Shown here in pieces: positions 1 through 28,937 of a stretch of 64,000 nucleotides of DNA. Source of the DNA: an uncultured Limibaculum sp. Lineage in GTDB: Bacteria > Pseudomonadota > Alphaproteobacteria > Rhodobacterales > Rhodobacteraceae. The position numbers were made by a program, and so were the translations under genes. The stretch covers positions 196,954 to 260,953 of the forward strand of contig CATOTJ020000002.1 in NCBI GenBank assembly GCA_951813525.2, given 5' to 3'. How positions within the stretch are numbered: position 1 is the first letter of the stretch; each line of letters opens with the position of its first letter. Under the pieces are notes generated by a model. The model had not been told where the DNA came from. It did not search any database and saw only the letters and a list, made by a program, of their open reading frames with translations.

Positions 1-638
1 CGCGAGGAAAAGCTGCAGGTGAAGCGGCGTGGCGGCCGGAATCGTGCGCTCGGGACGCGTAGACCGATGCTGGTACCGGACAGACCCAACGAGCGGTGGA
101 GCCTGGATTTCGTCTCTGATGCCTTCACCGATGGGCGCAGATTTCGGGTTTTGGCCATCGTCGATGACTTCAGTCGCGAATGCCTCGGCCTGGTCGCCGA
201 CACATCGCTGTCCGGCCTGCGCGTCACACGCGAACTGTCCGCAATCATGAGGCGCCGAGGACGTCCCAAGACCATCGTGAGCGATAACGGAACAGAACTG
301 ACCAGCATGGCAGTCCTCCGATGGTGTCAGGATACCGGCGTCGGTTGGCACTACATCGCGCCTGGCAAACCAACGCAGAATGCCTTCGTGGAGCGCTTCA
401 TCGGCAGTCTCCGAGACGAGCTGTTGAACGAGACGCTGTTCACGACCCTCGCCGAGGCGAAAGCACAAATCACCGCTTGGAAGGAGGACTACAACCGAAA
501 CAGACCGCACTCATCCCTGGGCAATCTAACGCCAGACGAATTTGCCGCGAAGATGGCACTGGAAAACCAGGCCGCATGAGGCCAGAAATCAACCCACGGA
601 TTCTCCAAATGGCTGGAGGGAAGTCGGGTCTCAGGACA
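1..638 (+). mobile_element. IS3-family (IS407-like) insertion sequence, 3' part; orfB integrase core 19..579, cut by window start
   Basis: ORF has WSLDF..D / SDNG / ERF DDE motifs; element end ...gtcgggtctcaggaCA at 638. Confidence 0.92.
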
Positions 639-798
639 GCGTGCCTGTCGCGCAGCCGCCATTGGTCGGATCTGATGCGCGAGGAATTGGAGTAGGCGAG
701 TACAAAAGTCCATCTTCCGTTGCTGATGGAAACTGAATGTCAGTCTTTCCAGACGAGCTGCGCATCGCATACCTCCGATACGGTCTAATAAAGAACAG

Positions 799-1221
799 TC
801 ATTCACACCGCGCCAAGCCGCCGAACCGTCCGCCCTCTGTCCACAGAGCTGTAACGAGCGCGAGCGCAAAGACGCCACCGACAAGCGGCAAAACAGTTCC
901 GTCAAACAAATGCCCGATGAACCATCCAAACGGCAAAGACACGAACGTGGAGATCGAGCCGATCACCGTAGCTCCCAAGCCCGCAATGTGTCCCAACGGT
1001 TCCATCGCAAGCGCATTGAGATTTCCAACCAGGATCCCGACGCAAAAGAACGTGGCCAACCGCCAAGCTAAGAACAACGGAATTGATGGCCGTCCATCGA
1101 CCGCGGAGAAGACGATGATAAAGGCACCGCTGATCAGTACGATCGCGGTAAGCACACCGTGGGTCAAAGGACGCATCCCCAACCGCAAAACCAGAAAAGA
1201 GTTCACAGCAGTCCGAAACAC
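799..1221 (-). pseudogene. C-terminal remnant of Bcr/CflA-type MFS efflux transporter
   Basis: Hydrophobic helices with GNLNALAMEPLGHIAG motif; only ~140 aa, in-frame stop just upstream. Confidence 0.7.
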
Positions 1222-1472
1222 GACACTCTTTGCCGCTGGGCAATTCTTCTAAAACTGCCGTAACGCTCACCGCCCGTTCACCGCCCGGATCGCGCCAGAT
1301 CTGGTTATTGATCCGGGCTGAACACCAGGTGCGGTTTGATCCCATTTTCCGCACAGTAACCACTTGATTTACGAAAGGAGGACAGGGGACCCGTCGACGC
1401 GATTGGCCGGTGGTTGTACGCCGGAACATAGGAGGGCCGACGATCGATTGGACCGACTTCTGCCCTGCGACC

Positions 1473-2396
1473 TCAGATTAATGTTTGCGCGATTCCCAAG
1501 GTCGATCCTGCCGCGTTTCTGTAGGCGGTGGGTGCCATGCCGGTCACTCTCGCGAATGACCGGCAAAAGTGCGATTGGCTCGAGAATCCAGTGCGCGCCG
1601 AGATTTCGGTCAAGGAAATGTCACCAGAGGTAAGCAGCGTCTTGGCCGCCTCTACCCGTCTCTTTTTGACGAACTGTCCAGGGCTTTCGCCTGTCGTTGC
1701 CTTGAAAAGCCGCGCGAAGTGATGCGGGCTATAGCAGGCCTCGCTGGCCAATTCCGACAAGGTCATATTCCGATGCAGGTTTGCATCAATGAATTCAAGC
1801 AGCCGATGCATTCGCCTGGCGTCCAGCCCGCCCGGCTGTTCGGTGTTTTGGCAGCGTGATGGGGTCAGATTCGAATAATGTTTCAAAAGATGCGCCGCCA
1901 GAGCCACGCGCATCGTCTCGACAAGCAGCCCGCTGAGGCCCGAGGGCTCGGCCATCTCGTCACGGATACAATGCGCAATCTGCTCGATGAACGGGTCGTG
2001 GAAACCGCCATCATAGCGAAGTTCCACTTTGTCGGGATCAACGCCGAACTCTTCCAGTGCGCTTTGCGAGAACTGCCGGTGCGGCACATAGATATGCAGG
2101 CAGTTCTTGATTTCGGCGAAAATCCGCACCGAGCGCTCGAAAATTCCTGCGGGGCACAGCCAGATCGTTCCAGGCATCGAGCAGGTGTCCTGCACGCGCC
2201 CATCGCCTTGTCGCTTGACCCGCGAATTGCCGGTGAGTTGCACCGCGATTTCGGTGGACGCCGGCTTTAGCGGTCGCAGCCGTCCGGCACCGTGAACCCA
2301 TTCCTCGGCCGATAGGGATCGCCATCCCAATCCGTGGCTCGAACCGAGCCGCATGCTATTGACGTATTTTTGCTCTCCATGGGCGGCGATTGTCAT
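1473..2396 (-). CDS. AraC-family transcriptional regulator, divergent from the Mo-enzyme operon
   Basis: C-terminal double HTH (LSELASEACYSPHHFARLFK ... GFSSQSHFCRSF). Confidence 0.9.
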   Translation of the reverse strand: MTIAAHGEQKYVNSMRLGSSHGLGWRSLSAEEWVHGAGRLRPLKPASTEIAVQLTGNSRVKRQGDGRVQDTCSMPGTIWLCPAGIFERSVRIFAEIKNCLHIYVPHRQFSQSALEEFGVDPDKVELRYDGGFHDPFIEQIAHCIRDEMAEPSGLSGLLVETMRVALAAHLLKHYSNLTPSRCQNTEQPGGLDARRMHRLLEFIDANLHRNMTLSELASEACYSPHHFARLFKATTGESPGQFVKKRRVEAAKTLLTSGDISLTEISARTGFSSQSHFCRSFARVTGMAPTAYRNAAGSTLGIAQTLI

Positions 2397-2636
2397 GTGA
2401 ACTTCACATCTCTGATGGAAATTGCGCAGAGCAACTGTACCGCAAAGTGCCGATTTAGCCAGCGGAACGTGGTCCGAGCCAGGTCGCTATGCGGTCGCGA
2501 TCGCCGGAAATCTTCGTCAATTTGGCGCAAATCGCAAGAATCGACACAAAATTCGCAAGATCATGAAAAACGTGACTGGGGATCCCGCCTACGGTGTTTG
2601 GCAATCAAAAGACAGCCAGCAACAGTGGAGATCACC

Positions 2637-4790
2637 ATGGCCAGCAAGACCGTCTTGGGCGCCTGCCCGCAAGACTGCCCCGATACTTGCTCGATGCTCG
2701 TCAATGTCGAGGATGGAAAGGTCACCAGCGTGCGTGGCAACCCCGATCATCCATATACCCGCGGACGTCTGTGCGTGAAGGTGAACAATTATCAGGACAA
2801 GATTTACAGTCCCGACCGCGTGCTGCACCCGCTGCGCCGCGTGGGGCCGAAGGGGTCGGCTCAGTTCGAACAGATCACCTGGGACGAGGCCCTGGATGAG
2901 ATCGAAACGAAGTGGAAAGCGATTATCGCCGAGCACGGCGCCTCGGCCATCCTGCCGTATTCCTATTTAGGTACCCAGGGGAACTCGCAGGGCCTGCATG
3001 TCGGGGACGCCTTCTTCAACAAGATGGGCGCCTCAGTGTCCGAGCGTACCTTCTGCGATTCCGGGTCCTGCACAGCCTATGCGATCACAATCGGCGACAC
3101 GGCGGGTGTCGATCCCGAGGCGTTGGCACTGTCGAAATACATTGTTCTTTGGGCAACCAATCCGCTGAGCGCGAACTCGCACCTTTGGCCTTTTATCATG
3201 GAGGCTAAGAAGAACGGCGCCAAGATTGTCGTGGTGGACCCATATAAAACCACGACGGCCAAGCAGGCGGACTGGCACATCCCGATCCTGCCTGGCACAG
3301 ATGGTGCGCTCGCGCTCGGGCTGATGAACGTGATCATCAACGAGGGCCTGACCGACACCGACTATGTCGAAAAATACACCTCGGGCATCGAGGAGTTGAC
3401 GGAGCATGTGCAGCAATACGACCCCGAAACCGTCGCGGACCTGACCGGACTCAGTTCCGACGACGTGCGCAAGTTGGCCCGTGAATTCGCCGCCGCTGAA
3501 CCGGCCGTGATCCGCGTCGGCGTCGCCATCGAACGCCATGCGGGCGGCGGCCAAACGGTGCGCGCGCTGGCGTGTCTGCCAGCGCTGACCGGGGCGTGGC
3601 GCAAGCCCGGCGGCGGCATCCTGCAATTGCCGATCTGGGTTTTCCCAATGCGGTGGGACGCGATGTCACGCGCCGATTTCCTGCCCGAAAACCCGCGTGT
3701 TGTGAACCTCTGGAAACTGGGCGAGATCCTGAACGGAGAGAACCTTGAAGGCCCGCCGATCAAATCGATGATGGTCTACAATGCCAACCCGGCGGTCACG
3801 ACGGCCGAGCAGGAGAAGGTCATCCAGGGTCTGATGCGCGAGGATCTTTTCACCGTGGTGAGCGAGCACTTCATCACGGACACGGCGCGTCACGCGGACA
3901 TTGTCCTGCCGGCGACCACGCAGATGGAACAGGAAGAGATCATGTTCTCCTGGGGCCATTTCTATCTCACCTTCAACAACAAGGCCATCGATCCCATGGG
4001 CGATGCGATCCCGAACACCGAGTTGTTCCGGCGTCTGGCCGCACGCATGGGCTTTGACGATCCGCACTTCAGGATGACGGACGAGGAGTTGATGAGGAAC
4101 ACCATCGACTGGGACTCGCCCACCCTCGAAGGCGTCACCTTCGAAGACATCAAAGAACGCGGCTATGTGCGGCTGAACCTGCCCAAGACCGAGGAATACG
4201 CCCCCCATGCCGAAGGAAACTTCCACACGGCCTCCGGCAAATGCGAGTTCGTGTCCTCGGCTGCGGCAGGCGGGAATTTCGTTATCCCGCTCTTCCGGCA
4301 GGGCTATACCGAGCAGCAGATGGGCGACGCCATCACGCCGATACCGGAATACATCCCGCCCAACGAATCCACGGCCACCAACCCGACGCTGGGTGCGAGC
4401 TATCCGCTCAGCATGGTCTCGCCTAAGAGCCACGCCTATCTCAGTTCGTCATTCGGCAACCTCAAGCACCAGCAGGAGCACAACGGCAAACAGTCCGTCA
4501 TCATGCATCCCGACGACGCGAAGGTACGCAGTATTTCGAACGGGGACCTTGTCACGATTAAGAACAACCGGGGGAGCTATGTGGCCGAGGCGAAGGTGAC
4601 CGAGGATGTGCGCCCCGGCGTGGTTTTCTCCCCCGTCGGTCATTGGCGTCACGGGTCCGAGGCGAACGCCACCGTGCAAGCGATCCTGCCGTCGACCTTG
4701 GCCGATCTGGGCGGTGCGCCAACCTTCTCGGACACATTGGTCGAGATCAGCCTGGTCAACACCGCCGGAAAGAGCATCGCCGCGGAATGA
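2637..4790 (+). CDS. Molybdopterin-dependent oxidoreductase (DMSO-reductase superfamily), cytoplasmic, function unknown
   Basis: CPQDCPDTC...C Fe-S motif, RVLHPLRR, ADIVLPAT, C-terminal HPDDA domain; ATG 2637 with GGAG RBS; no Tat signal. Confidence 0.9.
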   Translation: MASKTVLGACPQDCPDTCSMLVNVEDGKVTSVRGNPDHPYTRGRLCVKVNNYQDKIYSPDRVLHPLRRVGPKGSAQFEQITWDEALDEIETKWKAIIAEHGASAILPYSYLGTQGNSQGLHVGDAFFNKMGASVSERTFCDSGSCTAYAITIGDTAGVDPEALALSKYIVLWATNPLSANSHLWPFIMEAKKNGAKIVVVDPYKTTTAKQADWHIPILPGTDGALALGLMNVIINEGLTDTDYVEKYTSGIEELTEHVQQYDPETVADLTGLSSDDVRKLAREFAAAEPAVIRVGVAIERHAGGGQTVRALACLPALTGAWRKPGGGILQLPIWVFPMRWDAMSRADFLPENPRVVNLWKLGEILNGENLEGPPIKSMMVYNANPAVTTAEQEKVIQGLMREDLFTVVSEHFITDTARHADIVLPATTQMEQEEIMFSWGHFYLTFNNKAIDPMGDAIPNTELFRRLAARMGFDDPHFRMTDEELMRNTIDWDSPTLEGVTFEDIKERGYVRLNLPKTEEYAPHAEGNFHTASGKCEFVSSAAAGGNFVIPLFRQGYTEQQMGDAITPIPEYIPPNESTATNPTLGASYPLSMVSPKSHAYLSSSFGNLKHQQEHNGKQSVIMHPDDAKVRSISNGDLVTIKNNRGSYVAEAKVTEDVRPGVVFSPVGHWRHGSEANATVQAILPSTLADLGGAPTFSDTLVEISLVNTAGKSIAAE

Positions 4791-5092
4791 CGCATATCGT
4801 TACGGATAACTGCCGGGCATGCCGGTTCACGCAATGCGTGTCCGTCTGTCCAGTCGAGTGCTTCCATGTTGGCGAAGACATGCTCTACATCGATCCCGAG
4901 CTCTGCATTGACTGCGGCGGATGCATTCCTGTTTGCCCGGTCAACGCCATCTATGACACCGTCGCGATGCCTGAAGAACACGCACCCTGGATTGCGATCA
5001 ACAAGCAGAAGTCAGCCGAGTTACCGGTGATCAGCGCGGCGATGGATCCAATGCCGGGCGCAGAAGATAAGCGCGCGGCGCTCGGGCTATAG
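4787..5092 (+). CDS. Dicluster (FdxA-like) ferredoxin
   Basis: CRAC..TQCVSVCPVEC and CIDCGGCIPVCP; ATGA overlap with upstream stop. Confidence 0.9.
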   Translation: MTHIVTDNCRACRFTQCVSVCPVECFHVGEDMLYIDPELCIDCGGCIPVCPVNAIYDTVAMPEEHAPWIAINKQKSAELPVISAAMDPMPGAEDKRAALGL

Positions 5093-5094
5093 AC

Positions 5095-6474
5095 TTGGAC
5101 GCCGTGCCACAAAAAAGGACCTTCGCCGTCGCTGTCGTCGGCGCAGGTCCAAGTGGGTTCTATGCCGCCGAAGCGTTGCTCAGGGCGTCGGACGACATCT
5201 CGGTCTGGATGTTTGAGAAACTGCCAGTGCCTTATGGCCTGGTGCGTTATGGCGTGGCGCCCGATCATCCCAAACTGAAGGCGGTGACCGCGGTGTTCGA
5301 CCGGATCGCGGGAATGGACGGTTTCCATTTCTGCGGCAATGTCGAGATCGGGCGCGATGTCTCTGTCGCCGCAATACAAGAGCATTTTCACGCGGTAATA
5401 TTCGCACATGGCCCTGCCAGCGGGGCCGAACTGGGCATCCCCGGCGAAGATCTGCCGGGCAGTCACACCGCCCACGCTTTCGTGGCCTGGTATAACGGGC
5501 ATCCCGATTATCGCGATCTGACGGTAGATCTGCGCACCGAGGCCGCAGCGGTAATTGGCAACGGCAACGTGGCTTTGGATGTCGCGCGCATCCTCGCCAA
5601 GCCAATCGACGAGCTGCGCAAGACCGACATCGCAGATCACGCACTGGAGGTTCTGGCCGAGAGCCAGATCCGCGACATTCACGTCATCGGCCGACGCGGT
5701 CCGGCCCAGGTCAATTTCGTCTCCAAAGAGCTGCGCGAATTCAGCGAGACCGAGGGCTTCAGATCCATTGTCGATCCGGCGGACATGGATCTGGGTGTAG
5801 CCTGCAAGGAGGAATTGGAAGACACAGGGGCCGGTGATTTAAGGCTCTGCGCCGAACTGCTCGGTGGCTTCGTTCATTCCAGCCAAAAGGCGCCGCGGAC
5901 CTGTCATTTCCACTTTCACCAAATGCCCGTTGCCATCACCGGCGATGCCCGTGCGCGTGTGCTCAAGCTGCGGCTCAACAAGCTGATCGGTTCAGCCTTT
6001 GCCCAACGGGCGGTGCAAACGAACGAAGCCTTTGATCTTTCCTGCGGCCTCGTGGTCAGCAGTGTTGGGTACAAACCTGCATTACTTGAACCTCTTGCGC
6101 TGGCGCGAGACGGACGCCACCTGGACCATGCGAACGGGCGCCTCGTGGAAAACGGAACCGTTTTAACCGGGCTCTATGTGACCGGGTGGGCCAAACGGGG
6201 TCCGAATGGCACCATCGGTACAAATCGAGGCGATAGCCAGGAAACGGTGGCAACTCTGCTGACGGACAAACCAATGCTGGCAGCGAATTCCAGGCAAAAT
6301 GCCGCCTCGCTGTTGGAAAAGCTACGACCCCAAATGGTCACTTACGATGACTGGCTGGCGATCGACGCTCGCGAGAAAACGAACGGCGCGAAATCCGGCC
6401 GACCCCGGGTAAAGCTCACATCGAGATCAATGATGCTGAGTGTTCACAACATGCTCGTGCAGCCCACATTATGA
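5095..6474 (+). CDS. Ferredoxin-NADP+ reductase (adrenodoxin reductase/FprA type)
   Basis: GAGPSG, PYGLVRYGVAPDHP, GNGNVALD, GRRGP, GWAKRGPNGTIG motifs. Confidence 0.9.
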   Translation: MDAVPQKRTFAVAVVGAGPSGFYAAEALLRASDDISVWMFEKLPVPYGLVRYGVAPDHPKLKAVTAVFDRIAGMDGFHFCGNVEIGRDVSVAAIQEHFHAVIFAHGPASGAELGIPGEDLPGSHTAHAFVAWYNGHPDYRDLTVDLRTEAAAVIGNGNVALDVARILAKPIDELRKTDIADHALEVLAESQIRDIHVIGRRGPAQVNFVSKELREFSETEGFRSIVDPADMDLGVACKEELEDTGAGDLRLCAELLGGFVHSSQKAPRTCHFHFHQMPVAITGDARARVLKLRLNKLIGSAFAQRAVQTNEAFDLSCGLVVSSVGYKPALLEPLALARDGRHLDHANGRLVENGTVLTGLYVTGWAKRGPNGTIGTNRGDSQETVATLLTDKPMLAANSRQNAASLLEKLRPQMVTYDDWLAIDAREKTNGAKSGRPRVKLTSRSMMLSVHNMLVQPTL

Positions 6475-6563: not shown

Positions 6564-6798
6564 TTGGAGCATCAATCCTCTGCTGAAAGCCTCTTCCTGT
6601 TGCTCAAACGCGAACGCATCAAACGTTTCACCCATCCGGCGCGGAAAGGCGCAAGGCGCGACGTGTTCGGGTGCATTGAGATGTTTTACAACCCTCGACG
6701 AAAACACACGCGCAACGGCATGCTGTCGCCGGTAGATTTCGAAGCAAGACAGCTCAAACTGAACCAGGCAGGTGTTTGGGAAACTAGGGGCAACCCAA
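6564..6798 (+). pseudogene. IS3-family transposase 3' remnant with right end
   Basis: AESLFLLLKRERIK...YNPRRKHTRNGMLSPVDFE; IR-like aaactaggggcaacccCA end. Confidence 0.7.
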
Positions 6799-6851
6799 AC
6801 GCCCAATCAGAGAAGCGGACATTACCGTGCAATTCAGATCCGCACATATAC

Positions 6852-7808
6852 CTAGGAGGTTCCGCGCCGCACGGTTCGAGTTTGCCATTGCGCCTCGATT
6901 TTTGCCTCGTTCGCGAGGTTCACAATCTGAAGAGCGGTTTCCCGGGTCGCTGGGGAGATCGGTCCGTTGGCGGGCAGGGCCCTGAAGAGCCTTCTGCGTA
7001 TGGTGGGGTCCACAATCCGCGAGATCGCAAATTCTCCCCGTGTGGTTTCCCGGTTGATCGCACTGAAGGGGAGGATCGCATAGCCGTCTCCGGCCCTAAC
7101 AAGATCGCGCTGGGCCTCGTTTGAATCCACTTCCAGAGCGATCTGTGGGGACAATCCGGCTGAGGTGAAAGCCGCATCAATCAGGCTACGCACCCCGCCT
7201 CCCAGGGCATACAGCAAAAGCGGCGCGTCGCCGATTTCTGCGAGCTTGATCTCCTCTGCCTGAACCAGTGCCGCCGACTTGTCGCCGACCAGATACAGAG
7301 CCTCATCGGCAAACAACTCGGTGTCCAGCCCATGATGTGGGTGGGTGTCAGTCACCACTGCCACGTCAACATGACCTTTCTGCATCATGTCTGGAACATC
7401 CGCGCTGAAGGCTTCCAGGATCCGAACGGCACAATTTGGATGGCGCTCTCGCATACGCCGAATGAGGGGAAGGAAAAGAATGCGCCCGACGCTTTCAGGC
7501 ATCGCGACCCGGCACTCCCCCCGCAGGTCGCCGCTCATCTCCTGAACCTTGGCGCACAGCACGTCGTGGCGGCGCAGAATGTCTATACTCGCCTCGTGCA
7601 TGAGACGGCCGCTGTCGGTTAACGTCACACCGCGGCCCGAGCGGTTGAACAACTTCGCGCCCAATGTCTGTTCCATCTGCGCGGTAATGCGACTTAGCGC
7701 GGATTGCGTGACCCCAAGCACCACTGCGGCACGTGAAAAGCTTGTCGCCTCTGTGATGGCCAGAAACGTACGCATCTGGTGGAGCGTCAGATCATTGAGC
7801 TCCTGCAC
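6852..7808 (-). CDS. LysR-family regulator
   Basis: SFSRAAVVLGVTQSALSR HTH, LFNRSGRGVTLT, substrate-binding domain. Confidence 0.92.
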   Translation of the reverse strand: MQELNDLTLHQMRTFLAITEATSFSRAAVVLGVTQSALSRITAQMEQTLGAKLFNRSGRGVTLTDSGRLMHEASIDILRRHDVLCAKVQEMSGDLRGECRVAMPESVGRILFLPLIRRMRERHPNCAVRILEAFSADVPDMMQKGHVDVAVVTDTHPHHGLDTELFADEALYLVGDKSAALVQAEEIKLAEIGDAPLLLYALGGGVRSLIDAAFTSAGLSPQIALEVDSNEAQRDLVRAGDGYAILPFSAINRETTRGEFAISRIVDPTIRRRLFRALPANGPISPATRETALQIVNLANEAKIEAQWQTRTVRRGTS

Positions 7809-7857
7809 AATGTTTTCCTCATAGTAGATAGTCCTTTCGTGACAATTCTATCATGAG

Positions 7858-9006
7858 ATGACAGATGTTAAAACGCGTTGTGAGATAGAATGCATTTTAG
7901 TCGATCAGGATGGACTTGATATGGATGGAAACAGTTACGCGAGCCTTCCGGACACCATGGCGAAACGCTACTATCTGGATCCTGCCGTATATGAGGAAGA
8001 AAAAGAACGGATCTTCTTCAAGGAATGGATCTGTGTTGGGCATGTAAGCCAAATCCCGGAAACCGGCAGTTTTCTCACCGCAGAGATCGCCGATGAGCGA
8101 ATTGTAGTGTTCCGGCAAGACGATGGCTCGTCCCGGGCTTTCTACAATGTGTGTCAACACCGCGCGCATCCGCTGGTGGAGGGTTGTGGTCAGCGTGGCA
8201 AGATAACCTGCCCGTACCACGGCTGGACATATTCAGTGAACGGCGACCTGATCGGCGCGCCCGGCTGTCATGGTCTGGCCGGGTTCAAGGACCGAAACAT
8301 CAAACTGAGGCAGGTGCGCTGCGAACTGGTTCTTGGCCTCATCTTCGTCAATCTGGACGAGCACGCTGTGCCGATTGCGCAGAAACTGGGTGTCGTTGTT
8401 GACGAAATCGCAGCCGCGTTCCCCCGCCTCGAGGAAATGGTGCTTGTGGCCGAGCACACCCAGCATCATCACAGCAATTGGAAGGTGACGATCGAAAACT
8501 TCACCGAGTGCTATCATTGCCCGGTGGCCCACAAGTACCTGGTTCAAAACACCTACAGCGGCGAAGCGTACAAGGTCGAATTCGACGGCGCGATCATCCG
8601 CCATTCCTCCAAAGGTCACAGGGACCCGGCGGTCCACGGCGAAGATTTCCTGGTCTGGTTCATGTGGCCCACATTCGCCATTGAACTGTACCCGCTGCAT
8701 CGCTGCGCGTCGCTGCGCTACTGGATCCCACGGGGGCACGAGCGCTGTGACTATGTATTCCGCTGGCACACCTTGCCGGATCTTTCTCCAGAAGCGGTTC
8801 AGGAGGTGATCGACTATGCCAAGGTTCATGACGAGACCACGGGAGACGAAGATACCGCCTTGGTCGATCAAGTCCAGGTTGGCCTGAGGAGCCGCGGCTA
8901 CACGGGCGGGATGCTCGTTGTTAAGCCCGAGCTCAACAACGAATGTGAGAACGCGGTCGCCCATTTGCAAAACTTCTATCTGCAGCAGATGGGACCGGGA
9001 CGCTAA
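7858..9006 (+). CDS. Rieske non-heme iron oxygenase alpha subunit (choline/carnitine monooxygenase-like); start may be 7921
   Basis: CQHRAH..CPYHGW Rieske motif; NWKVTIENFTECYHCPVAH mononuclear Fe motif. Confidence 0.88.
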   Translation: MTDVKTRCEIECILVDQDGLDMDGNSYASLPDTMAKRYYLDPAVYEEEKERIFFKEWICVGHVSQIPETGSFLTAEIADERIVVFRQDDGSSRAFYNVCQHRAHPLVEGCGQRGKITCPYHGWTYSVNGDLIGAPGCHGLAGFKDRNIKLRQVRCELVLGLIFVNLDEHAVPIAQKLGVVVDEIAAAFPRLEEMVLVAEHTQHHHSNWKVTIENFTECYHCPVAHKYLVQNTYSGEAYKVEFDGAIIRHSSKGHRDPAVHGEDFLVWFMWPTFAIELYPLHRCASLRYWIPRGHERCDYVFRWHTLPDLSPEAVQEVIDYAKVHDETTGDEDTALVDQVQVGLRSRGYTGGMLVVKPELNNECENAVAHLQNFYLQQMGPGR

Positions 9007-9016
9007 AGGGCCGCAC

Positions 9017-10069
9017 ATGAAGATTGTCCAAGCCGAGCTTGTCCCCTTCGAGCCCGAATTTTCGAACGGTAAGGCCTATGTCCAGTCAATCACTGTGCAG
9101 TCAAAACTGTATCATAGCCTTTTACAGGTCACGACGGAGGATGGCCTGACAGGCGTGGGCGAGGTCGTGCGCTTTTCTGATGTAAGAGAAGACGAAGCAG
9201 ATCGTGCGGACGCTGCAACGGTAAAAGAACTGATTGGTTCCGAACTCTCAGGCGTCCCGGGCATGCTGACAGACTGGAATGGCCGTGATGTGAGTTTTCG
9301 AAACATCTCGTTTGCCTTGGACTGCGCCTGGCATGATCTGATTTCCCAGAAAACCGGCGTGCCCGTCTCAGCACTTCTGGGCGGACCTGCAGCGGGCGAC
9401 GTGCCGGAGATCCTTTCACTCTCGGCAGGGTCGGCCGCTGATGTCACCGCAGGCATCCGTGCCAACGGCGGACAGGCGCCGGTCATCCAAATCAAGCTGG
9501 GGGTGGATGATTTGGACACGGATATGGCCTGCGTCAGAGAGGTTCTGAGCGGTCTGAGCAAGAAGCAGCTCGTGCTCGCCGATTTCAACGGTGCGTTGCC
9601 TCTGGACGTGGCGCTTGAGGAGATTCCGACACTGAGCCATCCGCAGCTCATCTGGGAAGATCCGTGTAAACGGTACGAAGACAATGTGGAGGTGGCGCGG
9701 AGCTTGCCTTCACCAATGATGATTGATTCCAGCCTGTGGGGTCTGGACATGATCACGCGGGCCATTGCCGACCGTTTTCAGATGGTTTGCATCAAACCCG
9801 TAAAGTTTGGTGGGTTGGGTGCTGCCCGAACCGCCCGGGATATGTGCGTGGCTGCTGGCATGAAGATCCGAATTGACGGGCCTTGGGCCGGCCAGCACTA
9901 CGCCCATGCCGCACTGGCGCTTGCCGTCGGTGCGCCGACCGATCAGATGATCGGATCCATTGACCTGACAGAACCATTGGATACGGATCACGAGATGATC
10001 GCCCGTCCTGCCCCGGGACGCGTTGGCCCGGCAGACCAATCCACAAGTAGCCAGACGAGACGCCAATGA
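9017..10069 (+). CDS. Enolase-superfamily (mandelate racemase/MLE subgroup) protein, HpbD-like, divergent
   Basis: TTEDGLTGVGE capping domain, QIKLG, DFNG, WEDP, KPVKFGG. Confidence 0.75.
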   Translation: MKIVQAELVPFEPEFSNGKAYVQSITVQSKLYHSLLQVTTEDGLTGVGEVVRFSDVREDEADRADAATVKELIGSELSGVPGMLTDWNGRDVSFRNISFALDCAWHDLISQKTGVPVSALLGGPAAGDVPEILSLSAGSAADVTAGIRANGGQAPVIQIKLGVDDLDTDMACVREVLSGLSKKQLVLADFNGALPLDVALEEIPTLSHPQLIWEDPCKRYEDNVEVARSLPSPMMIDSSLWGLDMITRAIADRFQMVCIKPVKFGGLGAARTARDMCVAAGMKIRIDGPWAGQHYAHAALALAVGAPTDQMIGSIDLTEPLDTDHEMIARPAPGRVGPADQSTSSQTRRQ

Positions 10070-11172
10070 AAATCAAATCGATCCGCGTTTATGCCGTGCC
10101 TCTGCCGTACAAAACACTGGGACACGTCCGTGTCGCAACGCCAGAGATAACCTTGCAGGACACTGTAGTAGGCATCGAGACGGATGATGGCGTTGTGGGC
10201 TATGGCGAAAGCTGCCCACTCAATCCCACCTATCTGAACGCGACCACCGGCGGACTGCGGGCCGCGCTTGAATTCCTGTGCCCCGTTCTGATCGGCCGCG
10301 AACCCAGGGAAACGGGCGTCATCAACACCCTGATGGATCTGACGGTTCGTGGGCACGAAGCCGCCAAATCGGCAATCGATCTGGCCTGCTGGGATTTGCT
10401 CGGAAAATCGGCCGGATTACCAGTGAGAACACTTTTGGGCGGGGCCGAAGTTGATGGCGCACGACTCTATGACAGCATCCCCATGGACACACCGGCCGCG
10501 ATGCTCAGCACCATTGAAGACAAGCGGAAACAGGGCATCACTGTGTTTCAAGTCAAGCTTGGGCAGGGCGCCGAGCCGGACATCGAACGAATGCGGGCCA
10601 TCGCAGATGTGCTGAAGCCGGGAGAACGCATGATCTGTGATGCCAACCGCGGGTGGACCATGGAGGATGCCCGTCGGGTGGTGGCGGCCGCAGCGCAGTT
10701 GCCGGCTGAGCTGGGCCTGTTGATTGAGCAACCCTGCGCCACATACGACGAGTGCGTCACAATCCGCAAAGTGTGCAACCGGCCGTTCGTTCTGGACGAA
10801 GTCATCGATGACAGTCGTGACCTGGTGCGGGCGAGTGCGGATGATGCGCTCGATGCGGTGGTGATCAAACTCTCCCATGTGGGCGGCCTTACCAAAGCAC
10901 ACGAGATGGCCCGCCTTGCCATGCGTTTAGGCTTGCGTATGCGCATTGAGGACACGGTTGGCGCCGAAATTGTGCGGGCTGCGGTGGCCCATCTGGCGGT
11001 AACGATCCCCGAGAGGTCACTGCTCGCAGCCTACCCCCATCCTGCCGCCGTGTCGCTGGGTAAAGTAGGATCGGTGGCTTCAGAAGGAAAGCTCACGTGC
11101 AGGGACGAGCCAGGACTTGGCTTTGAGCCAGACATAAAAATATTGGGCGAGCCCATACAGCTGTACAGTTGA
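10066..11172 (+). CDS. Enolase-superfamily racemase/epimerase, hydroxyproline-betaine epimerase (HpbD)-like
   Basis: GYGESCPL, AKSAIDLACWDLLGK, QVKLG, DANRGW, EQPC, LDE, EDTVG, PGLG motifs. Confidence 0.8.
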   Translation: MKIKSIRVYAVPLPYKTLGHVRVATPEITLQDTVVGIETDDGVVGYGESCPLNPTYLNATTGGLRAALEFLCPVLIGREPRETGVINTLMDLTVRGHEAAKSAIDLACWDLLGKSAGLPVRTLLGGAEVDGARLYDSIPMDTPAAMLSTIEDKRKQGITVFQVKLGQGAEPDIERMRAIADVLKPGERMICDANRGWTMEDARRVVAAAAQLPAELGLLIEQPCATYDECVTIRKVCNRPFVLDEVIDDSRDLVRASADDALDAVVIKLSHVGGLTKAHEMARLAMRLGLRMRIEDTVGAEIVRAAVAHLAVTIPERSLLAAYPHPAAVSLGKVGSVASEGKLTCRDEPGLGFEPDIKILGEPIQLYS

Positions 11173-11545: not shown

Positions 11546-11610
11546 CCCGCGAGATCACCGGCGCTAACTGGTCCGGCCCAAGATTCTTCGGTCTGAGCGG
11601 CAAGCGATGA
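11546..11610 (+). pseudogene. 3' tail of DUF2924 gene of sibling island A
   Basis: Encodes EITGANWSGPRFFGLSGKR*, matching the end of 34142..34579. Confidence 0.8.
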
Positions 11611-13337
11611 GCCGGGCGCAAAAGATCCGCTGCGCGATCTACACCCGCAAATCCACCGAAGAGGGCTTGGACCAGGAGTTCAATTCACTGGATGCCCAGG
11701 CCGAGGCCTGGGCGGCCTACATCGCCAGCCAGAAGCACGAGGGTTGGATCGCGCTTCCGAACAGCTACGATGACGGTGGGATTTCTGGGGGATCGCTGGA
11801 ACGGCCTGCGCTGCAGCGCCTGCTGGCCGACATCGACGCCAGCAAGATCGATCGGGTGGTGGTCTACAAGGTTGATCGGCTGACACGATCTCTGACCGAC
11901 TTCTCGAAGCTGGTCGAGCGCTTCGATGCGGCCAACTGCTCCTTCGTCTCGGTGACGCAATCGTTCAACACCGCAACCAGCATGGGGCGGTTGACGCTCA
12001 ACATGCTGCTGTCGTTCGCGCAATTCGAGCGCGAAGTCACAGCAGAGCGCATCCGCAACAAGATCGCTGCCTGTCAATCGGCATCCAAACGTGACCCCAG
12101 ATCGGCGTTCAAAAGTGACCCCCCTGGTGCTGAGCAGGCCGGGTCGCGTGGAGACCTCATTTATCAGAGCGCGGCCCGGCCTGCGCGGTTGAATTAGGCG
12201 CGGTTCTTGAAGCGCCAGCTTTCGTTACCGGTCTCAACGATCTCGCAATGATGTGTGAGGCGATCGAGGAGTGCGGTGGTCATCTTCGCGTCGCCGAAGA
12301 CGGTTGGCCATTCTCCGAATGCCAGGTTCGTTGTGACAATGACTGATGTGCACTCATAGAGTTTGCTGATCAGGTGGAACAGCAGCTGACCACCGGTCTG
12401 AGCGAATGGCAGATAGCCAAGCTCGTCCAGAATTAGGAAGTCGAGGCGTGATATCAACTCAGCTGTCCGTCCCTGGCGCTCGGCCCGCGCTTCGGCATCG
12501 AGTTTGTTCACCAGATCGACGACATTGAAGAAGCGCCCGCGGCGGCCCTGGCGGATGCAGGCTCGAGCGATACTGACGGAGAGATGGGTTTTGCCTGTGC
12601 CGGTTCCGCCGATGAGCACGAGATTGCGCTGATGGTCGAGGAAGTCGCCGGTGGCGAGGTCACGGATCAAGGTTTCGTTGACCTCGGCCGCTTCGAAGTC
12701 GAATTCCTCCAGCTCCTTGGCCAGTGGCAGTTTCGCGATGGTCATCTGGTATTTGATTGAGCGCGCCAGCTTCTCGGAGATCTCGAATGCAGATGTCGCG
12801 GAGATCGCATCGGCGCGGCAGTCATTCACACAGATCGAGATGGGTCTGGTGTCACCGGACGCCAACACTCTGCTGACGACCCTGATCTCCGACGGCAAAG
12901 TTGCGCCTGAAAGCCTAAGCGTTGGTCTGGCCGCATCTGCCTTGGCATCCCGTCTCCAGATACCGGTCGCACGGATCAATCGGGACGCCTTGATCCTGAA
13001 CGACAGCTTCGTGCTGCGCAAACGCGGTGTCGAAGCCAGGATGATCCTGAGCGATCAGGCGCCAGTCATCGACAAGCTGCTGGTACACAACCTGGCCCTT
13101 GGCCATGCCTGGCTGGACGATCTCAAGCAAGGCACCACGATTAAGCAGATCGCCGAGCGGCAAAACACTTCTCGACAGCGCGTAGTTGCGATCATCGGTC
13201 TGGCATTCCTCGCACCTGACATCGTTCGGGATATCATCAACGGTCACCAAAGCCCTGCGCTTACCAGTGATGCGTTGATCAAATCTAGTCTACCGCCACT
13301 CTGGGATCAGCAGCGCGCGGCAATCTCCAGACTCTGA
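11607..13337 (+). pseudogene. Large serine recombinase of island A, disrupted by IS21 with internal deletion
   Basis: 11607..12071 matches N-terminus of 34576..36234; ~12788..13337 matches its C-terminus; middle missing. Confidence 0.9.
12072..12787 (-). mobile_element. istB: IS21-family remnant: one end plus 5'-truncated istB ATPase (12194..~12787)
   Basis: TGTCAATCGGCATCCAAA end with repeated GTGACCCC; GGTGTGKTH Walker A, ILDELGY Walker [10 protein letters not shown]. Confidence 0.9.
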
Positions 13338-27717: not shown

Positions 27718-28937
27718 TGACCTGAGCCCCAAGTTTCCTCCGGCGTTCGGAGAGTCCTTGGTTTGGGTTTGATGGTGCTACGCTGCGATCCTGTCCACTT
27801 TTATCTTCTCTGCAAATTCCATGGGTGTCAAATTTCCCAGTGCCGAATGTGGTCTGTGCCGGTTGTAGTCAGTCCGCCATTCTTGCAGGCCGTCTCGGGC
27901 GTCGCTGAGCGACGTGAACAGGGTCTCGTTCAGAAACTCGTCCCGCAGCCTTCCATTGAAGCTTTCGATGAAGGCGTTCTGGGTCGGCTTGCCGGGCGCT
28001 ATGTAGTGCCATCCGACGCCGGTCTCCTGGCACCAACGCAGCACTGCCATGCTGGTCATCTCGGTTCCGTTGTCTGAGACGATGGTGTTGGGCAGACCGC
28101 GGCTTGCAGTGATCCTGCTCAACTCCCGCGTCATCCGAAGCCCCGACAGGGACGTGTCCGCGACCAAGGCAAGGTTTTCACGGGTGAAATCGTCCACGAC
28201 GGCCAGGATCCGAAACCGCCGTCCGTCTGTGAATCGATCAGACACGAAGTCCAGGCTCCAGCGTTGGTTCGGGCCATCGGGCATAACCATTGGCCGTCGT
28301 GTCCCCAAGGCGCGCTTCCTGCCGCCTCTGCGGCGCACCTGCAGCCGTTCTTCGGCATAGATCCGTCGGACTTTCTTGATGTTCACTTCGAAACCCTCCC
28401 GGCACAGCATGACGTGGATACGGCGGTATCCGAACCGGCGACGGTCACCGGCGATCCGTCGGATGGCCTCGCGCAGATCGACGTCTTCAACGCGGCGTGA
28501 CCGGTACCGCACCGTCGATCGGTCAATGTTCAGAGTGGCGCACGCCCGGCGCTCGCTGACACCGTGGGCATCCCGCAGATGCGCCACAGCCAGCCTCTTG
28601 GCACCAGGCGTCACCACTTTTTTGAGTTCACATCCCGAAGCATCGTGATGTCCAGCATCTGCTCGGCGACCAGCTTCTTCAGGCGGGAATTCTCGTCCTC
28701 GAGATGCCGCAGCCGTTTGGCGTCCGAAGGCTCCATCCCGCCGAACTTGGATTTGTACTTGTAGAACGTACCCTGGCTGATCCCATAACGGCGGCAAATG
28801 TCAGGGGCCCTCTCACCAGCTTCGTGCTCTTTAAGCATCTGGATGATCTGTTCGTCGCTGAATCTCGGCTTCATGTTTGGTCCTCTCTCAATGGAGAACT
28901 CTACCATTCCGTGGAGGAGATTCAGGGGCTCAGGTCA
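27718..28937 (-). mobile_element. Complete IS3-family (IS407-like) element; orfA 28611..28874, orfB ~27778..28614
   Basis: TGACCTGAGCCCC terminal IRs; A6G frameshift motif; DDE core; no target duplication visible. Confidence 0.93.

Follow-up and report, generated by a model that had tools for sequence, protein, structure and literature searches.

A conserved and mobile three-component redox module around an uncharacterised molybdenum- or tungsten-dependent enzyme

Microbial cycling of nitrogen, sulfur, arsenic, selenium and chlorine depends in large part on enzymes that hold molybdenum or tungsten (Mo/W) in a bis(pyranopterin guanine dinucleotide) (bisPGD) cofactor. To our knowledge almost all characterised enzymes of this kind are connected to quinones, cytochromes or large complexes. 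The window studied here is a stretch of 64,000 nucleotides from an uncultured Limibaculum sp., and all coordinates are positions in it unless another contig or locus is named. Its module at 1473-6474 encodes such an enzyme together with a small ferredoxin and an FprA-type flavoprotein, and the question raised by the locus is how this enzyme is connected to the rest of metabolism and what it does. The comparisons described below show that the three proteins form a real, conserved and mobile redox module, which is a new wiring of a known kind of enzyme.

The operon and the family of its enzyme

Listing and translating the open reading frames (ORFs) gave four complete genes between 1473 and 6474, a regulator gene and three genes that diverge from it:

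1473-2396, minus strand: AraC/XylS-family regulator of 307 amino acids (PF12833 and PF00165)
2397-2636: divergent control region of 240 bp between the AraC gene and the enzyme gene
2532-2560, plus strand: candidate AraC operator, the direct repeat TCGCAAGA, 77-105 nucleotides 5' of the enzyme ATG
2637-4790, plus strand: cytoplasmic Mo/W-bisPGD catalytic protein of the MopB (dimethyl sulfoxide (DMSO) reductase) superfamily, 717 amino acids (PF04879, PF00384 and PF01568)
4787-5092, plus strand: 7Fe ([3Fe-4S][4Fe-4S]) FdxA-type ferredoxin of 101 amino acids, matched by Azotobacter ferredoxin I
5095-6474, plus strand: NADPH:ferredoxin oxidoreductase of the FprA/adrenodoxin reductase (AdR) type, 459 amino acids, matched by 1cjc and 1lqt

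The enzyme gene starts at the ATG at 2637, which has a GGAG sequence 7 nucleotides upstream. The longest ORF would begin with a GTG at 2334, but this start was rejected, as the homologues start at the same methionine as that encoded at 2637. The TGA of the enzyme gene and the ATG of the ferredoxin gene overlap (ATGA), and fprA begins with a TTG 2 nucleotides past the ferredoxin stop codon, a GTG at 5104 being the alternative start. The first cluster cysteine of the enzyme is residue 10, and there is therefore no room for a twin-arginine translocation (Tat) signal. Inspection of ORFs and Pfam domains found neither a DmsB-like four-cluster (beta) subunit nor a membrane anchor in the cluster. The original prediction, made from the DNA letters of this stretch, had described a divergent AraC gene followed by a translationally coupled molybdoenzyme, a ferredoxin and an FprA-type reductase, with no Tat signal, membrane subunit or beta subunit, and it was correct in every point of gene content and order as well as in these absences.

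The cysteines of the ferredoxin (C9, C17, C21-P ... C40, C43, C46, C50-P) are arranged as in the 7Fe ferredoxin I of Azotobacter, and follow the pattern used to recognise 7Fe FdxA proteins, C-x7-C-x3-CP ... C-x2-C-x2-C-x3-CP. Azotobacter ferredoxin I matches the protein with an E value of 1e-24. The ferredoxin stays below the cut-off of the FdxA_Protbact model (NF045490; 114.2 versus 135 bits), and a second FdxA with a housekeeping role, encoded elsewhere in the genome, is 44% identical to it. The module ferredoxin is a diverged FdxA paralogue specific to the module. FprA has full-length matches to adrenodoxin reductase (1cjc, E 2e-93, residues 6-448) and to M. tuberculosis FprA (1lqt, E 5e-92), and contains the Rossmann motifs for FAD and NADPH, GAGPSG at residues 16-21 and GNGNVA at about 155-160. 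No other copy of FprA was matched in the source genome. With the sole FprA match of the genome located in the module and the housekeeping FdxA located elsewhere, the module brings its own reductase and its own carrier.

The enzyme belongs to the MopB superfamily by its domains, its cluster and ligand motif and its fold. Its scores are above the Pfam cut-offs for PF04879 (Molybdop_Fe4S4, 52 bits), PF00384 (Molybdopterin, 151 bits) and PF01568 (Molydop_binding, 77 bits). The 4Fe-4S cysteines are C10, C14, C18 and C46, followed by K48, and the metal ligand is C140, which aligns with the tungsten ligand Cys141 of acetylene hydratase. All of these residues are invariant in 118 family members, as are D13, D16, G115, H182 and W184. 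An AlphaFold2 model of the enzyme, made with 26 family sequences, is confident, with a mean predicted local distance difference test (pLDDT) value of 90.7. In Foldseek comparisons the model reaches template modelling (TM) scores of 0.78-0.82 to FdhH, DMSO reductase, acetylene hydratase, Nap and Psr, and about 0.8 to Arr, with 17-24% identity to the MopB structures in the alignments. All MopB folds score alike, and Foldseek picked out no single closest relative.

Placement relative to the characterised MopB families was done with the cut-offs of curated NCBIfam hidden Markov models (HMMs) and with PDB scores. The enzyme reaches the cut-off of no curated NCBIfam family, as seen from these scores:

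Fdh-alpha (TIGR01591): 300.8 bits, cut-off 666
dmsA/ynfE: 296 bits, cut-off 778
PhsA: 245 bits, cut-off 694
NasC (NF047855): 231 bits, cut-off 1100
bisC family (TIGR00509): 224 bits, cut-off 1018, with a match in the C-terminal half alone
FdhF/YdeP (TIGR01701): 82 bits, cut-off 582
YdeP model: 38 bits, cut-off 1473

Among PDB sequences, acetylene hydratase matches best, with 200 bits. Catalytic residues of the formate dehydrogenases and acetylene hydratase are replaced or missing. Where the formate dehydrogenases, including FdhH, have a selenocysteine or cysteine followed by histidine, the ligand pair is Cys140-Asp141, and the RGQNNVQG segment with the catalytic arginine falls in a gap of the enzyme in the alignments to 7qv7 and 7bkb. 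Acetylene hydratase has a catalytic aspartate, Asp13, immediately following its second cluster cysteine; it corresponds to Pro15, a proline being found in 117 of the 118 family members. Ile113, Ile142 and Trp179 of the hydrophobic ring around the hydratase's substrate correspond to Gly115, Asp141 and His182. Enzymes of the BisC/TorA/DorA type have a serine ligand and no Fe-S domain, whereas the module enzyme has a cysteine ligand and an Fe-S domain. Two BisC-like paralogues are encoded elsewhere in the genome; they score 981 and 873 bits, just under the cut-off of 1018. An identity with Fdh4A (the "fourth formate dehydrogenase") was considered and rejected, since Fdh4A and P. putida PP_4596 have been assigned to the FdhF/YdeP family (PMC10308882), for which the enzyme has 82 bits against a cut-off of 582. 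On the basis of these comparisons the enzyme is best described as a cysteine-ligated, redox-equipped MopB protein of a distinct, uncharacterised family.

This family is large. One protein search gave at least 7998 matches among 8000 scored candidates, and about 5% of the sampled genomes of the class encode a member, yet no function has been assigned. Identity to the enzyme is about 55% or more for every one of the 120 best matches listed, which carry generic names alone, and the labels given to its relatives in the ESM Atlas are equally generic. A literature search found no paper describing the enzyme family or the module. No protein of this family in which ferredoxin, FprA and molybdoenzyme are fused was found among the longer proteins searched, which is weak negative evidence; the matches to long proteins were unrelated fusions or a NasN-like protein with 26% identity.

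Conservation and mobility of the module

A tree was made of 118 enzymes. The enzyme of the window falls in a clade of 22 members with a support of 95, and in all 22 the enzyme gene is followed by those of the ferredoxin and FprA. Further modules are dispersed elsewhere in this tree. A smaller IQ-TREE run recovers the same clade, and the FprA proteins of nine modules give a tree with the topology of the enzyme tree. Within the window's clade the link is thus strict and the genes have diverged together, while in the family at large the enzyme can be without the donor pair.

The genome survey covered species-representative genomes, from which 33 loci with flanking DNA were examined. The enzyme was found in none of 36 genomes of the same genus, in 20 of 401 genomes of the class and in 13 of the 401 genomes drawn from the phylum. 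Among the 33 loci the ferredoxin and FprA genes are found downstream in three, those of a Denitrobaculum metagenome-assembled genome (MAG), a Hyphomicrobium MAG and genome G416. The Denitrobaculum enzyme is 91% identical to that of the window. Most chromosomal homologues stand alone. In a clade with 52% identity, a lone enzyme gene is found amid housekeeping genes (TldD, cytochrome oxidase, glutamate-cysteine ligase) in small genomes. In another, with 42-47% identity (L077-L080), the enzyme gene is followed after 15-25 nucleotides by a gene for a PF10023 'putative aminopeptidase', after which come one or two fadD-like acyl-CoA ligase genes; this synteny is conserved and distinct from the module in the window.

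A scan of metagenomes added 80 loci, 62 of them informative in having at least 2 kb of downstream sequence. The ferredoxin and FprA genes lie directly downstream in 22 of these 62, and the distribution follows the relatedness of the enzyme: 20 of 39 loci where it is at least 56% identical, versus 2 of 23 below this value. The next gene after the module is moaA in 8 of 18 metagenome loci. In two metagenome loci, L134 (8105-8410) and L135, a ferredoxin gene comes right after the enzyme gene and no FprA is encoded within 4.5 kb; a donor reductase of another type may be used there.

The same gene order, molybdoenzyme, ferredoxin and FprA, is found on plasmid pAtS4e of Allorhizobium ampelinum S4 and other Agrobacterium vitis plasmids, on a pAt plasmid of A. 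tumefaciens, on Thioclava p4, on a megaplasmid of Ralstonia syzygii and on a Methylophaga plasmid. On four of these five plasmid types the module is followed by moaA (glp in Thioclava); the fifth, that of Ralstonia, is unannotated. The linkage to moaA or glp in the relatives is no more than suggestive of a bound Mo/W-bisPGD cofactor. Among the plasmid modules inspected, those of A. vitis, A. tumefaciens and Thioclava have a divergent AraC gene on the 5' side, and the module of Thioclava p4 lies between two directly oriented copies of IS6. The package moves on plasmids among Alpha-, Beta- and Gammaproteobacteria, including the plant pathogens A. vitis and R. syzygii, and its carriers also include soil and marine bacteria. 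The plasmid locations, the insertion sequence (IS) remnants that flank the module in the window and its absence from all 36 same-genus genomes identify it as mobile and accessory.

As the module occurs in more than 30 independent loci, the adjacency of its genes is not a matter of chance. Clustering of the ORFs of 33 module loci revealed no other conserved neighbour, neither a transporter nor a second enzyme. The original prediction had called the unit self-contained, and this agrees with the window's clade, where ferredoxin and FprA accompany the enzyme in 22 of 22 members and no further partner is conserved. It had also relied on co-conservation of the three genes, which holds for this clade but not for the wider family with its mostly stand-alone enzymes, and on the enzyme not clustering with a characterised clade that uses another donor; by HMM, PDB and Foldseek comparisons the enzyme lies in no characterised clade. 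One clade of a large family has in this way come to be bundled with an NADPH-driven donor chain of its own, with a regulator and often also with a gene for biosynthesis of the molybdenum cofactor (Moco). This packaging points to a selectable one-step trait.

Electron flow and candidate reactions

The reading preferred here, which has about an even chance of being right, is that an AraC-controlled three-gene operon carries electrons from NADPH through FprA and the ferredoxin to the molybdoenzyme, which reduces a small cytoplasmic substrate. A ligand-responsive AraC regulator would control the three genes. The FprA-type flavoprotein would accept hydride from NADPH and reduce the dedicated 7Fe ferredoxin by one electron per step. 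The ferredoxin would then dock on the monomeric cytoplasmic Mo/W-bisPGD enzyme and feed its N-terminal 4Fe-4S cluster, from which electrons would pass via Lys48 and the pterin to the metal ligated by Cys140. At the metal a small substrate, either membrane-permeant or made inside the cell, would be reduced, the most likely chemistry being abstraction of an oxygen atom from a sulfoxide, an N-oxide or an oxyanion. Such a substrate would require neither dedicated uptake nor follow-on metabolism, and the portable unit, often with a Moco-biosynthesis gene, could work in a new host without redox partners provided by that host. The electron-transfer chain itself is well supported. Characterised FprA and adrenodoxin reductases, such as M. 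tuberculosis FprA and AdR, run from NADPH to ferredoxin, and from their behaviour the chain in the module probably runs from NADPH to the substrate. The substrate class is a guess. The original prediction had likewise proposed a soluble reductase, with N-/S-oxide, oxyanion or dehydroxylation chemistry and induction by a specific ligand. It is supported in part, for the self-contained chain, while the reductive direction, the substrate class and the induction stay conjectural.

Chains of similar design are known. Class I P450 systems, for instance M. tuberculosis FprA with a 3Fe or 7Fe ferredoxin and a CYP, have the same sequence of NADPH, AdR-type flavoprotein, ferredoxin and terminal enzyme, but they end in a haem monooxygenase while the module ends in a Mo/W-bisPGD protein. 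Parallels are also found in mARC with cytochrome b5 and b5 reductase, and in E. coli YcbX with CysJ, which are three-component, Moco-containing N-reductive systems. They follow the same logic, in that an NAD(P)H flavoprotein, a small carrier and a soluble molybdoenzyme perform a one-step detoxification of small oxidised compounds. All their components are, however, unrelated to those of the module in sequence and fold, and their Moco is of the MOSC type and not bisPGD.

Several points weigh against NADPH-driven reduction. The enzyme has no characterised close relative, and the direction of electron flow is not constrained by the sequence. Residue 141, beside the cysteine ligand, is variable (Asp in 68 and Gly in 40 of the 118 members), and subclades may therefore differ in substrate. 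The Dor/Tor/BisC-type reductases of S- and N-oxides use a serine ligand and not a cysteine. Nor does the enzyme need an FprA donor everywhere: an FprA match is missing in five of ten genomes tested that encode a stand-alone enzyme, while FdxA is present in all five such genomes searched for it, and the enzyme may accordingly take electrons from the housekeeping 7Fe ferredoxin. Finally, orthologues of the ferredoxin and FprA, or of FprA alone (57%/49% and 45% identical), are found within an fhc/fwd-type operon in genomes G110 (L091, C2 3212-11761) and G340 (L092, C7 4884-9639). The genes of this operon encode the amidohydrolase FhcA, FTR and a GXGXG subunit, and the genomes have a stand-alone enzyme encoded elsewhere. 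In such a setting electrons might flow towards NADP+.

The main rival is accordingly a chain that runs in reverse, and it is considered rather unlikely. In this case the enzyme would oxidise a substrate of low potential, such as sulfite, arsenite, an aldehyde, a formyl group or a phosphite-like compound, and the electrons would pass via ferredoxin and FprA to NADP+, making NADPH. The presence of the ferredoxin-FprA orthologues in the fhc/fwd operons of G110 and G340, with the enzyme elsewhere, favours this direction. Azotobacter-type 7Fe ferredoxins are also low enough in potential to reduce NADP+, and a one-step detoxifying oxidation needs no follow-on genes either. The characterised FprA and AdR enzymes, on the other hand, work from NADPH to ferredoxin, the enzyme is without the histidine and arginine of the formate dehydrogenases and far below the cut-off for FdhF/YdeP/Fdh4A (82 versus 582 bits), and the gene context points to no donor substrate.

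The closeness to acetylene hydratase in the PDB scores (200 bits, the best match) raises the possibility of a non-redox hydratase or group transferase, in which ferredoxin and FprA would keep the metal reduced and active. This is very unlikely. The acetylene hydratase of Pelobacter acetylenicus (2e7z) is, like the enzyme, a monomeric cytoplasmic protein of about 720 amino acids with an N-terminal 4Fe-4S cluster and an equivalent cysteine ligand. It requires a strong reductant for activity, and many members of the enzyme's family stand alone without a dedicated donor. The two proteins are, however, about 24% identical over the structure alignment, the catalytic Asp13 and the substrate ring (Ile113/Ile142/Trp179) being replaced by Pro15 and by Gly115/Asp141/His182, of which Gly115 and His182 do not vary among the family members. 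The structure is no nearer to acetylene hydratase than to FdhH or DMSO reductase (TM 0.79-0.81). No ferredoxin or reductase genes are dedicated to acetylene hydratase, and a stoichiometric, co-diverging two-protein donor chain together with moaA would be costly for an occasional reactivation.

It is highly improbable that the enzyme is a divergent version of a known activity, such as a ferredoxin-dependent assimilatory nitrate reductase, a formate dehydrogenase or a protein of the Fdh4A/YdeP type. NarB and NasA are soluble, ferredoxin-dependent MopB nitrate reductases with one 4Fe-4S cluster, a cysteine ligand and ferredoxin or flavodoxin as donor. Like cyanobacterial NarB, the enzyme is monomeric and cytoplasmic, and it has the same single cluster and type of ligand. 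The module differs in its private AdR-type reductase and 7Fe ferredoxin, in the NasC score of 231 versus 1100 bits and in lacking a nitrite reductase or nitrate transporter, which were found in none of the 33 module loci. As for the Fdh4A type, P. putida PP_4596 is an Fdh4A-like protein encoded by a lone gene adjoining moaA (PMC10308882), and Methylorubrum extorquens Fdh4A and P. putida PP_4596 and PP_0256 are stand-alone cytoplasmic MopB proteins with a poorly defined mechanism (PMC10308882). They are of a different family, the enzyme having 82 versus 582 bits on TIGR01701 and 38 bits on the YdeP model; for Fdh-alpha the score is 301 versus 666 bits, and the RGQNNVQG segment with the catalytic arginine is missing.

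That the genes share no more than their transcription, the ferredoxin-FprA pair serving other enzymes (P450s or general Fe-S and redox metabolism) and the molybdoenzyme having another partner, is scarcely credible, since the occurrence of such pairs in other contexts (G110, G340) and the prevalence of family members without them are set against the 22 of 22 link in the window's clade, the congruent trees, the overlapping genes and the joint movement of the unit on plasmids of three proteobacterial classes.

Whichever way the electrons run, the module may represent an activity that has not yet been assigned to any Mo/W-bisPGD gene, namely a soluble, NADP(H)-linked and mobile one-step enzyme. 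This suggestion is a tentative one and more probably wrong than right. Candidates include a cytoplasmic reductase of dimethylsulfone/DMSO-type or N-oxide compounds, and a soluble dehydrogenase that reduces NADP+ with electrons from sulfite or a comparable toxic compound. If the suggestion is true, the orthologues that stand alone in small marine genomes would carry out the same reaction by means of a housekeeping ferredoxin. The gene for the in vivo reductase of dimethylsulfone (DMSO2) was listed as unknown in a 2026 preprint (10.64898/2026.02.18.706717). The system consists of three soluble proteins and a regulator, which makes discovery of its function unusually tractable.

Control region and flanking DNA

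The C-terminal double helix-turn-helix of the AraC protein (residues 203-294) scores 90 bits with PF12833 and 85 bits with PF00165. The N-terminal sensor of about 190 amino acids has no Pfam or PDB relative (residues 1-190), and hence gives no clue to the ligand. AraC homologues with 40-47% identity are encoded divergently 5' of the enzyme gene in L040, L041, L043, L044, L081-L083 and 15 metagenome loci. Of the informative metagenome loci with the module, 11 of 19 have a related AraC gene divergently on the 5' side; an AraC gene precedes a stand-alone enzyme in 4 of 31 loci. AraC probably controls the operon.

The direct repeat TCGCAAGA has a start-to-start spacing of 21 bp, which fits tandem AraC half-sites, and it may be the site where the regulator binds. 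Its core, GCAAGA-N15-GCAAGA, occurs once in the window versus 0.04 times expected. The core is kept at the same position in L009, the closest relative, where the rest of the spacer is poorly conserved. Looser GCAAGA-type repeats with 21-bp spacing are found in L083 and L043, and among the module loci the exact core is confined to the window and L009. The control region (2397-2636) matches no Rfam family, and the spacer thus contains no Moco riboswitch; a strong sigma-70 consensus was not found in it either.

The DNA similarity between the window and L009 is limited to the four genes. Synteny stops at the AraC gene on the left, and within the 3' part of fprA on the right. The module is bounded by remnants of mobile elements:

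1-579, plus strand: left boundary, a truncated IS3-type integrase (rve) fragment (PF13683 and PF00665)
6564-7124, plus strand: right boundary, a probable transposase remnant, the end of the ORF resembling the C-terminus of an IS3-type transposase

The right remnant stands where other modules have moaA. It matches no Pfam family, and has a 78% DNA match on contig C4. The integrase fragment on the left has a 70% DNA copy at about 27800-28350, and a serine resolvase is encoded at 11607-12197; the entire left part of the window resembles a mosaic of mobile DNA. Two ORFs, 737-1252 (plus strand) and 902-1429 (minus strand), lie between the integrase fragment and the AraC gene. The first of these was scanned and matches no Pfam family, and the intervening DNA is probably decayed mobile-element DNA.

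Past the right remnant, and outside the conserved module, the region 6852-11172 contains a LysR gene divergent from genes for a Rieske ring-hydroxylating alpha subunit and two enolase-superfamily (MR/MLE) proteins. No reductase of their own is found with these genes. An uncharacterised MopB gene encoding 763 amino acids occurs four times, in identical form, at contig ends of G000 (loci L005-L008), at C1:876-3164, at the C1 end, at the C2 end and at the C6 start. This gene is probably carried by a multi-copy repeat that breaks the assembly.

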